Of a stretch of 64,000 nt of DNA, positions 25,931 to 28,533 are shown piece after piece (the stretch's first letter is position 1; each line of letters begins with the position of its first letter). A program made the translations under genes and the position numbers. The stretch lies in NCBI RefSeq assembly GCF_013167455.1, contig NZ_CP038328.1, one strand, 5' to 3'. Under the pieces are notes generated by a model. The model had not been told where the DNA came from. It was given only the letters and a program-made list of their open reading frames with translations, and did no database searches. The DNA comes from Escherichia coli O157:H7. GTDB taxonomy: Bacteria > Pseudomonadota > Gammaproteobacteria > Enterobacterales > Enterobacteriaceae.

Positions 25931-25996
25931 GTGCACAGGGTAAGATGAATAAATATCTACGGTATTAATAATAGACCTTGTAAGAAGTTATTAAGT

Positions 25997-27184
25997 CTAT
26001 ATTGCATTTAAAAGGTCGTAATTATACGTATAGTTCTCTCTGGTAAAATATTGATTCTCTGAGTTATATGCTTCATATGTGTTATATTCCCCGACCTCAA
26101 AACCATTGTCCGGAGAATTTTCGTCTTTCTCGAGGGTGTTATCTGAAAATAACTCTTCTGAGCTAGAGTCTTCTATGTTTAAATCCATAGTATAATTAAT
26201 TTGGGGAATGACCAGATAAGCATTTTCTTTGATATTTTCATAATCTTCAATGATTATGTCGATATAATTATGTATTTTTTCTGATGAGAAATCTATCATC
26301 TCTGGTAATTTAATTCTGTTCAAGCAATTATTGATTTTCGATGAGCTTTTATATATTTCTTTTGTTAAATCATTTTCTAATTTATCTGTGAGAGTTGCTC
26401 TTGGTATAGATTTTATAATTGCAAATCTCATAATTTTTAATTGTTCTTCGGTAATATCTCCAAGCTCATTTAAACAACTTTCGACAAACTTAATTTTTTC
26501 TTCAGAATACATATCGCTAATGCTTGTTAAAACAGGCGTTATTTTTAGTAAATAATCCCAGGAGATTTTGGCGTTTTGTGTTGAACTAACAAAATTAACC
26601 TGAAACATGTTGGCATTAGTAAAATTTGTTGAATTCAATTTAAAAGGATTTAAAATAGTATTAGCCATATGTTTATCTGTGAAATCATAATAATCTAAAT
26701 CGACATTACGTAAGTCCAGAGAGGATAGATCAACGATATCTCCAGTCCCACAACTAAAAATTACGTTTAACCTCCTGAATTCATTGTAAATATCTTTTAA
26801 TGGGCAATTAATATTGATATTACCTGTGGATATTTCCTGGTTTTTTAACGGTTCATTAATGGTAAGTTCACAAGTATTGTCCGATCGTTGAATAATTTGG
26901 GCGTTATAACCTAAAAAATCCAGACGAAGAGACGAGTCATTATAAAGAATTACATTTTGTAAGTACGCTAATTCTTTTTGAAAATCACCAGTGATAATGC
27001 ATTTTCCACTAGGTTGTAACGTGTTAAGTAAAGTGACCATTTCAATAGAGGTCTGTTTTAGTTTTTCAATACCTGGTGCTAGTGCTTCGAGGTTATTTCC
27101 TGTTGGGCTTTCAGGTAGGTCATTCATTTTTCGACGGACTAAATCACTACTAATATCATTACCAATTGATGAAACAGGGAACAT
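25997..27184 (-). CDS. yhaC: Uncharacterised protein with central pentapeptide-like repeats and an acidic, Tyr/Asn-rich C-terminal tail
   Basis: 395-aa ORF in a very AT-rich region; segment DLSSLDLRNVDLDYYDFTDKHMANTILNPFKLNSTNFTNANMFQVNFVSS has 5-residue periodicity. Confidence 0.8.
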   Translation of the reverse strand: MFPVSSIGNDISSDLVRRKMNDLPESPTGNNLEALAPGIEKLKQTSIEMVTLLNTLQPSGKCIITGDFQKELAYLQNVILYNDSSLRLDFLGYNAQIIQRSDNTCELTINEPLKNQEISTGNININCPLKDIYNEFRRLNVIFSCGTGDIVDLSSLDLRNVDLDYYDFTDKHMANTILNPFKLNSTNFTNANMFQVNFVSSTQNAKISWDYLLKITPVLTSISDMYSEEKIKFVESCLNELGDITEEQLKIMRFAIIKSIPRATLTDKLENDLTKEIYKSSSKINNCLNRIKLPEMIDFSSEKIHNYIDIIIEDYENIKENAYLVIPQINYTMDLNIEDSSSEELFSDNTLEKDENSPDNGFEVGEYNTYEAYNSENQYFTRENYTYNYDLLNAI

Positions 27185-27205
27185 TATTTTATCCTTTATA
27201 AATAA

Positions 27206-27745
27206 TCAATAAAAATCATTATTAAAATGATCGGGTGAAAAAAAGAGAATTTGCCAACAATCTGAAGTAATACTGGTTTTATTAAAGTACGCAGGGGGTG
27301 TTAAGATGGCTTCTTTTCGGGTGAATTTTGCACAATACTTAGAAATCGTCTCCTTAATACATTCCAGCTCTTTTTTATTGACGGCTGAGCAAGTACATTT
27401 TTCGCCAAAAGGTGCAAAAGTGCCTACATCTAATGTTTGTATGATATAATCGTCATGTTCTCCTGTAGAAATATCTATGATGAATGGACTCATATTTTCC
27501 GGTTGGATTCGGATCATGACAGAAGGAACATCGCCTTGATAGAAATTCAATGCAGTAATTGCAGATAATACTCTCCGCAGTTCATTACTTATACTGTAAA
27601 TTTTATTAACGTCATTGGTGGAGACAATTTCTGCAAACTTTCTTTTTACCGTCCAATAATCAATATTTCTATTGTGATTGTTAACCACTGCGTGCATTGG
27701 TGGGATTGAAGGGTGAAAAATATGTGCAATTGGGAAGCCTTTCAT
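27206..27745 (-). CDS. yhaB: Uncharacterised protein (179 aa from internal Met), 21 bp upstream of yhaC on the same strand
   Basis: ORF MKGFPIAHIFHPSIPPMHAVVNNHNRN...; AT-rich; no recognisable motif. Confidence 0.75.
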   Translation of the reverse strand: MKGFPIAHIFHPSIPPMHAVVNNHNRNIDYWTVKRKFAEIVSTNDVNKIYSISNELRRVLSAITALNFYQGDVPSVMIRIQPENMSPFIIDISTGEHDDYIIQTLDVGTFAPFGEKCTCSAVNKKELECIKETISKYCAKFTRKEAILTPPAYFNKTSITSDCWQILFFSPDHFNNDFY

Positions 27746-28000
27746 TGATGCCTGCCTTGTCATCATGACAAACAATAATAGATGCTTATTTTCCTCGCAG
27801 GGTTCTTTCGCACTATCAAAAAACGCTCATTTACCCGGCGTTACAGTAAACGAAGCAACATTCTGTGGCCTACGCCGATCAAAAGCTCTGTGAAAATTTC
27901 CCTTGTTGTCTTTGTCTGACCTTATCGCGGCGATCAGCAATTATTCGTTTTGTGATCCTCAATACAAAATGCTATTCGTCGCCTATGAAGGAAGAAGAAT

Positions 28001-28219
28001 TTATGGAAAACGATTGCATTCACAAAATGACGTCCTGTCAGAAGAGAAAAAGTTGACGTTAATCAATTGTTCGAGATGATCAATACCTGTATTCGAAATT
28101 TTAAAATATTGATAAAATAAATGTTTGTTCTCCAACAAATAGCGTGAAAAAATGTGACGTGCCGCATTATTTATCGCTGAAAATGGTTTATTTATAATAA
28201 AATTTGAGAACTTGCTCAT
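28001..28219 (-). CDS. tdcR: Small AT-rich ORF reported as tdc operon activator TdcR (72 aa)
   Basis: MSKFSNFIINKPFSAINNAARHIFSRYLLENKH...NRFP; divergent from tdcA; coding status supported mainly by annotation history. Confidence 0.55.
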   Translation of the reverse strand: MSKFSNFIINKPFSAINNAARHIFSRYLLENKHLFYQYFKISNTGIDHLEQLINVNFFSSDRTSFCECNRFP

Positions 28220-28449
28220 TAAATTTAACTCAAATTTTGCCTGGTAATTATCCGGTAATTGCTTGAAATATGGTCTCAGCCCCTTTTTTGTATTAACCAC
28301 ATAACGAATGATGTTATCGCCATAAAATATGGTTATCCCCGTCATTTTTTTTGACAAAAATCAGGGTTTATGCTGATTTTTATACTTTAATTTATTGATA
28401 TTTAAAGGTATTTAATTGACATGACGATACCCTGGAAAGTATTGAAAGT

Positions 28450-28475
28450 TAATTTGTGAGTGGTCGCACATATCC
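28450..28475. promoter_or_regulatory. CRP (cAMP receptor protein) binding site in the tdc promoter
   Basis: aatttgTGTGAgtggtcGCACAtat matches the CRP consensus TGTGA-N6-TCACA, about 60-80 bp upstream of tdcA. Confidence 0.65.
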
Positions 28476-28533
28476 TGTTCATTTCATTTTGATACACTTC
28501 ATGCCGTCAATGAGGTAATTAACGTAGGTCGTT

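Follow-up and report, generated by a model that had tools for sequence, protein, structure and literature searches.

The rnpB-tdc intergenic tract of Escherichia coli O157:H7: probably an ancestral control region joined to an old yhaB-yhaC insert

Acquired islets silenced by H-NS and the so-called promoter islands of the K-12 chromosome are among the closest described counterparts of the locus considered in this work, an AT-rich tract at positions 25940-28530 of a 64,000-nucleotide stretch of Escherichia coli O157:H7 DNA (the window; RefSeq assembly GCF_013167455.1, contig NZ_CP038328.1), which lies between rnpB and the tdc operon and carries the genes tdcR, yhaB and yhaC. The locus is itself listed among these islands, and its composition agrees with theirs: promoter islands have been described within yhaC and in the tdcA/tdcR spacer, the former being bound by H-NS in all compiled chromatin immunoprecipitation (ChIP) studies and the latter in two out of three, and both were flagged by earlier foreign-gene predictors (Panyukov and Ozoline, 2013; PMC3661553). 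Further, a published list includes yhaB-yhaC as a two-gene operon that is young and of unknown function (PMC12218254), a scan of 92 E. coli genomes for positive selection placed yhaC among its top genes (PMC9110714), an FNR ChIP peak has been labelled yhaB (PMC1802558), and recurrent IS5 insertions have been reported in the tdcA/tdcR spacer during gut colonisation (PMC7518454). The locus is already known in the sense that its y-genes are named and that its foreign-like composition and H-NS binding are in print. An earlier sequence-only reading of the window had presented the tract as an uncharacterised module, a description that holds with regard to function and does not hold for the locus as such, since its genes have names, YhaC has a family model, and the predicted foreign origin has been published (PMC3661553).

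Other described systems resemble parts of the locus. Residues 151-200 of YhaC share the x(D/N)(L/F/M)xx pattern of pentapeptide-repeat proteins (PF00805/PF13599; Qnr, MfpA, HetL, Rfr, PipB2); however, YhaC has only about 10 units (approximately 2.5 coils), and the other 85% of the protein matches nothing. Qnr and MfpA are pentapeptide-repeat DNA mimics whose mimic helix comprises approximately 8-9 coils, unlike the 2.5 coils of YhaC, which matches neither family model. The SPI-2 effectors PipB and PipB2 of Salmonella display an N-terminal non-repeat region, pentapeptides and a short conserved C-terminal motif; this constitutes a resemblance only, as the YhaC repeat tract is much shorter, no model match is obtained, and the genes occur in strains without a functional type III secretion system. 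Islands at the 3' ends of stable RNA genes (tRNA, tmRNA) represent a last counterpart: the yhaB-yhaC insert likewise follows an RNA gene with a duplicated 3' end, but it is devoid of an integrase, and its far boundary shows no further copy of the rnpB 3' end.

In the promoter-island study the locus was treated gene by gene (PMC3661553), whereas here the tdcR part is considered ancestral regulatory DNA. From interspecies alignments, profile searches and substitution analyses, we regard the tract as probably a composite, in which an ancestral tdc control region adjoins an ancient, H-NS-silenced yhaB-yhaC insert encoding two orphan proteins with a presumed accessory role.

Extent and ancestry of the AT-rich tract

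A GarK scan of one genome per species provided 80 Enterobacteriaceae species loci. In nearly all of these, rnpB follows garK and the order garK-rnpB-spacer-tdcA is syntenic, with rnpB being 95-100% identical in the 77 loci that reach it. The yhaB-yhaC pair is missing from the 75 non-Escherichia species loci with garK-rnpB synteny, and the 33 loci that contain both rnpB and tdcA have no counterpart of positions ~25965-27935: homology to the outgroup spacers stops near 25961 and restarts near 27935-27948. The corresponding rnpB-tdcA spacer, found in Citrobacter, Enterobacter, Pseudocitrobacter, Lelliottia, Trabulsiella, Silvania and Superficieibacter, is 620-860 bp long, has a GC content of 32-37%, and carries no YhaB, YhaC or TdcR coding sequence. 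Positions 27940-28533, which span the whole of tdcR, 60 bp past it and the spacer between tdcR and tdcA, align over approximately 600 bp to the outgroup spacers upstream of tdcA (identities of 60-69% to Citrobacter, Salmonella arizonae and Enterobacter sp. ENT03); the identity to other Escherichia is 79-87%.

As judged from these alignments, positions 27940-28533 are an ancestral, intrinsically AT-rich tdc control region and not foreign DNA; only ~25965-27935 is lineage-specific. Since the ancestral spacer is itself so poor in GC, low GC alone is no mark of foreign DNA at this site. The sequence-only reading had proposed a 2.6-kb acquired module. Of this, a yhaB-yhaC insert lying between rnpB and the control region of tdc is retained and the tdcR third is given up; similarly, the proposed survey of presence and absence did reveal relatives whose rnpB-tdc junction is devoid of yhaB-yhaC, with the tdcR portion kept in them. 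The features referred to throughout are the following, in window coordinates:

Ending at 25368: garK, left flank.
25401-25777, plus strand: rnpB, RNase P RNA, the left anchor (Rfam RF00010, 318.6 bits, E 3.7e-104).
25728-25964, plus strand: 113-bp direct repeat, about 2.1 copies (repeat search of the window).
~25965-27935: lineage-specific insert of about 2 kb, comprising yhaC, yhaB and about 190 bp upstream of yhaB.
25997-27184, minus strand: yhaC, 395 aa (open reading frame, ORF; NCBIfam NF007262).
26000-26215, minus strand: acidic Asn/Tyr/Glu-rich tail of YhaC, residues 324-395.
26585-26734, minus strand: pentapeptide-repeat segment of YhaC, residues 151-200.
27206-27745, minus strand: yhaB, 179 aa from ATG (ORF).
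27940-28533: AT-rich tdc upstream region, ancestral by interspecies alignment.
27951-27966, minus strand: CRP-type site TGTATTGAGGATCACA, at the distal border of the ancestral DNA.
28001-28219, minus strand: tdcR ORF, 72 aa (NCBIfam NF008507, annotated as transcriptional activator).
28053-28066, minus strand: FNR-type site TTGATTAACGTCAA, inside the tdcR ORF.
28534-29472, plus strand: tdcA, first gene of the tdc operon, the right anchor (ORF; so annotated in matching E. coli records).

With regard to composition, the GC content of 25940-28530 is 32.7%, compared to 50.1% for the whole window, which makes it the lowest-GC 2.6-kb stretch in the 64 kb, approximately 4 standard deviations under the mean. 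The insert itself, with a GC content of 0.31-0.35, displays the atypical base composition and codon usage of an acquired islet: GC at third codon positions (GC3) is 0.27 in yhaC and 0.31 in yhaB, against 0.568 +/- 0.072 in the 48 other ORFs of the window, and rare codons amount to 7% in yhaB/yhaC against 3.2% in the other ORFs, about a two-fold difference. These values bear out the AT-richness initially perceived. The claim of three ORFs on the same strand was also correct in coordinates, lengths and minus orientation, as was the spacing of 21 bp between the yhaB stop and the yhaC start; an AAGGA Shine-Dalgarno sequence lies ahead of yhaC. A total of 4.2 kb of the window is 100% identical in E. 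coli strain CDC#03-98.

Within the genus, the loci of five non-coli Escherichia species (E. albertii, E. whittamii and three others) keep tdcR and lack yhaB-yhaC, with remnants of different extent. E. albertii retains a 137-bp piece of the yhaB 5' end (27596-27731); in Escherichia sp. MOD1-EC7003, 110 additional bp from upstream of yhaB are kept, and a 75-bp segment weakly matches the 3' end of yhaC (26172-26246); and E. coli JJ1886, of sequence type 131 (ST131), carries 63 bp from mid-yhaC and the first 34 yhaB codons, annotated as pseudogene fragments. As the remnants differ between lineages, the simplest reading would be that the insert was acquired once, ahead of the divergence of these species, and then deleted in independent events. 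Of the 5,426 complete E. coli genomes, 4,314 (~80%) contain no less than 80% of yhaC, and about 1,090 contain only a 9% yhaC remnant, including Nissle 1917, ExPEC XM and ST131 strains, which belong to phylogroup B2. The proposal of a foreign islet is thus refined to an insert of 2 kb rather than 2.6 kb, apparently ancient in the genus and repeatedly deleted.

The tdcR ORF, for which no Pfam match was obtained, behaves differently from its neighbors in the tract. All differences among the common tdcR alleles within E. coli are non-synonymous, and the ratio of non-synonymous to synonymous substitution rates (dN/dS) against the divergent haplotype described below is 0.93-1.16, as estimated from a small sample of 219 nt. 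The ORF contains a stop codon in one Escherichia species locus (L008) and in ST131, has no ATG in E. albertii, and corresponds in Citrobacter and Salmonella to orthologous DNA that is similar and broken by stops and a 1-nt indel. These observations fit a stretch of regulatory DNA that acquired a short ORF in Escherichia, a possibility raised here as a question and not as a conclusion. Older genetic work reportedly described a trans-acting effect of tdcR; if the ORF were neutral and confined to Escherichia, a re-test of the protein role would be justified despite the annotation as an activator.

Concerning regulatory sites, the CRP-type site TGTATTGAGGATCACA has one mismatch to a site footprinted in vitro and listed under yhaB (PMC12871828), and is conserved in the Escherichia species without yhaB-yhaC, and TTGATTAACGTCAA at 28053-28066 is an exact match to the FNR site under the ChIP peak labelled yhaB (PMC1802558).

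Selection on yhaB and yhaC and features of their products

Pairwise dN/dS values were 0.27-0.39 for yhaC and 0.13-0.26 for yhaB, compared to 0.03-0.09 for garK and 0 for tdcA (dN = 0 within E. coli), and remained under 1 in every YhaC domain. This argues for yhaB and yhaC being real protein-coding genes under relaxed purifying selection. Further information came from a rare E. coli haplotype, present at the same position in 19 of the 5,426 genomes (loci L003-L006), which differs by 15-40% of nucleotides only from the rnpB end to mid-tdcR (25778-28050), the flanks being 97-99% identical. Its yhaC displays a synonymous divergence (dS) of 0.63, equal to that of garK between E. coli and other Escherichia (0.62-0.79), and both ORFs are intact in it, with a single 6-codon indel in yhaC; ORFs that remain intact at such a dS would correspond to real, selected proteins. 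The divergence points to an import from a distant Escherichia lineage or to a very old polymorphism. As selected orphan genes, yhaB and yhaC would merit functional study as part of the E. coli 'y-ome'. In a separate comparison, that of Escherichia sp. MOD1-EC7003 with the window, garK dS is 0.62 and tdcA dS only 0.12, a contrast that places a recombination breakpoint at this junction in that lineage.

YhaC is an acidic protein (isoelectric point, pI, 4.4; 45 kDa) that is matched end to end by the NCBIfam model NF007262, 'YhaC family protein', with 893.7 bits. Residues 151-200 can be written as ten consecutive in-register pentads (VDLSS LDLRN VDLDY YDFTD KHMAN TILNP FKLNS TNFTN ANMFQ VNFVS), in which every centre residue is L, F or M, the centres lying 5 residues apart, and D or N occupies position -1 in 7 of the 10 units. 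A run of 10 centres was reached in one out of 100,000 shuffles of YhaC. None of the ten centres varies across 13 alleles, whose identity falls to as little as 65%, and, outside the repeat segment, both termini of the protein are also invariant between alleles.

When a profile of the YhaC alleles was compared to 1.84 billion representative proteins, no full-length relative was found except YhaC and its fragments, and homologues were confined to E. coli/Shigella. The other matches, with E values from 2e-10 (best 2.4e-10) to 1e-3, corresponded to long proteins, each aligning repeatedly to YhaC positions 140-215, and all eight that were checked are true pentapeptide-repeat proteins according to NCBIfam. 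In the reverse direction, true pentapeptide-repeat proteins match positions 141-230 of the NCBIfam YhaC model. As a sequence-based assignment, the pentapeptide-repeat character of YhaC is sound, covering only about 15% of the protein, and the 5-residue periodicity claimed previously is upheld by the ten in-register units together with the reverse profile matches.

The tail (residues 324-395) consists of 15% N, 14% E, 11% Y and 8% D and has a pI of 4.05, in agreement with its former description as acidic and rich in Tyr and Asn. It constitutes the most variable part of YhaC: over residues 324-384 the two haplotypes share 34% identity, against 82% over the last 11 residues, which form a conserved YTYxYDLLNxI end. 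Comparison of the YhaC profile with PDB sequences gave only weak matches, including the C-domain of a lincosamide nucleotidyltransferase (E 0.04) and pentapeptide proteins of designed or natural origin (E 0.05-1.6). The N-terminal domain of FolD (5zf1, E 0.0067), obtained in the same search, was set aside for want of Pfam backing. A Pfam scan of the 13 alleles yielded no more than scattered matches, below threshold or isolated, for instance Pox_VLTF3 in one allele. Some metagenome proteins from short ENA contigs fuse a YhaC fragment to unrelated sequence, in one case with a Y_phosphatase3 domain, and are most likely assembly chimeras.

YhaB (20 kDa, pI 6.6) would reach 189 aa if translation started at an upstream TTG, 10 codons before the annotated ATG (27746-27775); some database YhaB clusters are called with a longer N-terminus (MTRQAS...). 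Its homologues are likewise found in E. coli/Shigella only, with a precomputed Pfam label, PF27690 (UCP004546). No match to YhaB was obtained in local Pfam, NCBIfam, PADLOC, PHROGs or PDB searches, the YhaB profile yielding none in the PDB even at E 10. The former statement that YhaB has no recognisable motif is consistent with these results, the label PF27690 being the sole one available.

The composite reading and its alternatives

With the integration of these findings, the history of the tract may be outlined as follows. Positions 27940-28533 would be ancestral tdc control DNA with CRP- and FNR-type sites, in which the tdcR ORF exists in Escherichia only, and ~25965-27935 would have been acquired once, from an AT-rich donor, before the Escherichia species diverged. 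H-NS, according to the binding reported in the literature, would keep the insert largely silent; most E. coli would have kept it under relaxed purifying selection, and independent deletions would have removed it from E. albertii, other Escherichia and ST131-type (phylogroup B2) E. coli. YhaC may be a multidomain protein with an N-terminal alpha/beta region, a short beta-helix of about 10 pentapeptide units, then a helical region and, lastly, an acidic and fast-evolving tail ending in the conserved YTYxYDLLN, and YhaB its partner, presumably produced from the same transcript. The beta-helix and the acidic tail could act as a binding scaffold for another macromolecule, in a dispensable and niche-specific accessory function that would be expressed only once H-NS silencing lifts.

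The H-NS component agrees with a check proposed in the sequence-only reading, since H-NS binding of the locus has been published (PMC3661553). A scan for the H-NS nucleation motif TCGATAAATT displayed no enrichment (9 matches against 5.5 expected) and none inside yhaB-yhaC, and no derepression of yhaB-yhaC in an hns mutant is reported in the literature searched.

Several results weigh against the composite reading. About 20% of E. coli and every other Escherichia species sampled have lost the insert, and frameshifts affect the 3' third of yhaB in several large allele clusters and in strain ETEC4077, both of which fit a drift toward decay. A donor lineage was found neither among the 1.84 billion representative proteins nor in phage records, viral contigs or genuine plasmids, with no relative of yhaB or yhaC in the phage records or viral contigs; four 'plasmid' matches were discarded, being megabase-size records or a chromosomal-fragment record. 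The insert contains no integrase or transposase ORF and no flanking direct repeat. No phenotype, partner, interaction or expression condition for YhaB or YhaC appears in the literature searched, where most matches to 'yhaB/yhaC' are unrelated acronyms. In Pfam, the repeat families match YhaC below threshold (Pentapeptide_4, E 0.17, or 0.057 for the best allele; Pentapeptide, E 6.4). Finally, the AlphaFold2 models were unusable, with a mean predicted local distance difference test score (pLDDT) of 40.3 for YhaC (13-row alignment; about 30 at residues 150-205) and of 36.8 for YhaB (7-row alignment); the domain picture of YhaC is therefore drawn from its sequence and low-confidence secondary structure. 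A Foldseek search of the YhaC model against the PDB gave nothing at E <= 0.001. Thus, among the profile and structure searches that had been suggested, the former produced the pentapeptide-repeat matches and the latter nothing usable.

The alternative that survives best, which we nevertheless consider unlikely, is that yhaB and yhaC constitute a decaying, functionless remnant, silenced junk heading for deletion. Deletion from about a fifth of E. coli and from every other sampled Escherichia species, the yhaB frameshifts in large clusters together with one annotated pseudogene, the numerous truncated YhaC products in the protein collection, the H-NS binding and poor transcription of the locus (PMC3661553) and the missing phenotype would all be expected for such a remnant. 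Functionless decay is contradicted by the selection data as estimated here: dN/dS is 0.13-0.39 in every domain, far under 1; a 395-codon ORF in DNA with 31% GC has stayed open at a dS of 0.63 with one 6-codon indel; and no variation affects the ten repeat-core residues or either terminus.

An improbable explanation is that the pair forms a conflict module, for anti-phage defence, toxin-immunity or competition, in which YhaC, through its acidic beta-helix and hypervariable acidic tail, would mimic DNA or protein or trap a foreign macromolecule. A two-gene operon of orphans that is fast-evolving, patchy across strains and H-NS silenced would suit this role, and so would the occurrence of yhaC among the top genes of the positive-selection scan (PMC9110714). 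Balancing or diversifying selection would explain two haplotypes approximately as divergent as Escherichia species, and the combination of a pI of 4.4 with pentapeptide repeats recalls the DNA mimics Qnr and MfpA. Yet the repeat tract, at about 2.5 coils, is far shorter than theirs, pairwise dN/dS is below 1 throughout, and the locus holds a fixed position that is not in a defence island. Furthermore, neither YhaC nor YhaB matched PADLOC-DB v2 at E <= 1, PHROGs gave nothing meaningful, and no toxin, immunity or defence family of NCBIfam was matched by either protein.

A type III effector of the PipB/PipB2/EspX kind, with YhaB as the chaperone of YhaC, is very doubtful. The architecture of YhaC is loosely like that of PipB2 (an N-terminal region, pentapeptide repeats and a conserved C-terminal motif), a small partner gene lies upstream, and the window comes from an O157-like strain, which presumably possesses a type III system. 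However, the NCBIfam models for PipB (NF011744), PipB2 (NF011743), the SopA family (NF007264), HECT effectors, Qnr, MfpA and HetL gave no YhaC match at E <= 1, even though control pentapeptide-repeat proteins matched effector models at E 1e-16 to 1e-54. The genes are also present in K-12 and most commensal strains, which have no working type III system, and YhaB, with its pI of 6.6, lacks the acidity of a chaperone. Foldseek did return EspG chains for YhaC, with a probability <= 0.47; these matches are non-significant, derive from a model with a pLDDT of 40, and were not taken as evidence. The effector or toxin/immunity role that the sequence-only reading had entertained is hence not borne out by PipB, PipB2, SopA, Qnr, PADLOC or PHROGs.

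That tdcR, yhaB and yhaC arrived together as a single 2.6-kb foreign islet is hardly tenable. The idea follows from the unbroken low GC of 25940-28530 and from its three ORFs on one strand; on the other side, the tdcR part has its approximately 600-bp alignment to outgroup spacers that are equally AT-rich without the insert, and other Escherichia species possess tdcR without yhaB-yhaC. Least credible of all is a de novo origin of yhaB and yhaC by expansion of the local AT-rich spacer, to which the missing donor, the AT-richness of the surrounding spacer and the resemblance of tdcR to an ORF opened in ancestral non-coding DNA might lend themselves, but against which stand the 2 kb without similarity to outgroup spacers, a YhaC segment recognised by profiles of the ancient pentapeptide-repeat family, and the very low chance of long ORFs opening at 31% GC.

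Repeats and variable cargo at the rnpB junction

The 113-bp unit that follows rnpB starts in the last 50 nt of this gene and carries a terminator hairpin (25787-25810 and 25900-25923), with a terminator-like site at 25898-25925. Tandem Repeats Finder reported nothing after rnpB, missing these repeats. Their copy number differs between strains, the yhaC-rnpB spacing being 219 bp here and 227, 613 or 726 bp elsewhere; they are present in Escherichia, Citrobacter and Lelliottia species without yhaB-yhaC, and no copy of the unit is found at the distal boundary of the insert. Because the repeats occur without the insert and vary in number between strains, they do not appear to be scars of its insertion, and a reading of them as att scars was rejected on their presence in species without the insert and their absence from the far boundary.

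The junction is variable in other bacteria as well. In six loci from other genera, unrelated cargo of 2-5 kb lies between rnpB and tdcA, including a GntR-family regulator among the neighboring ORFs, a methyl-accepting chemotaxis protein, a DeoR-family regulator and an IS4 transposase remnant, along with several ORFs without an NCBIfam match. In E. coli Z1323CEC0002, a tyrosine integrase gene is located 278 bp after rnpB and is followed by IS26 (locus 8479-12100); everything from yhaC through the whole tdc operon is gone, and cyuP comes next. This genome suggests that the rnpB 3' end is able to serve as an integration site. The sequence-only reading had seen a landing site in the RNA gene and its tandem repeats: the repeats after rnpB and the variable junction are in line with this, and their interpretation as scars of the islet is not. 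The annotation of a separate strain, E. coli 2024CK-00188, places an IS110-like IS621 transposase within the rnpB-tdcA interval.

Searches for other elements in the tract gave no additional candidates. A promoter and terminator scan did not rise above shuffled sequence (16 promoter-like sites against 13 +/- 3.6), and Rfam at a permissive threshold returned rnpB and chance matches on terminator hairpins, and nothing else. Elsewhere in the window, the lowest GC3 after yhaB-yhaC, 0.38-0.39, belongs to two adjacent minus-strand ORFs at 4903-6262, a further patch of atypical composition, and GC dips to 0.37-0.39 at 20500-21250, between the divergent ORFs at 19140-20711 (minus strand) and 21086-22420 (plus strand), which is probably an AT-rich divergent promoter region.

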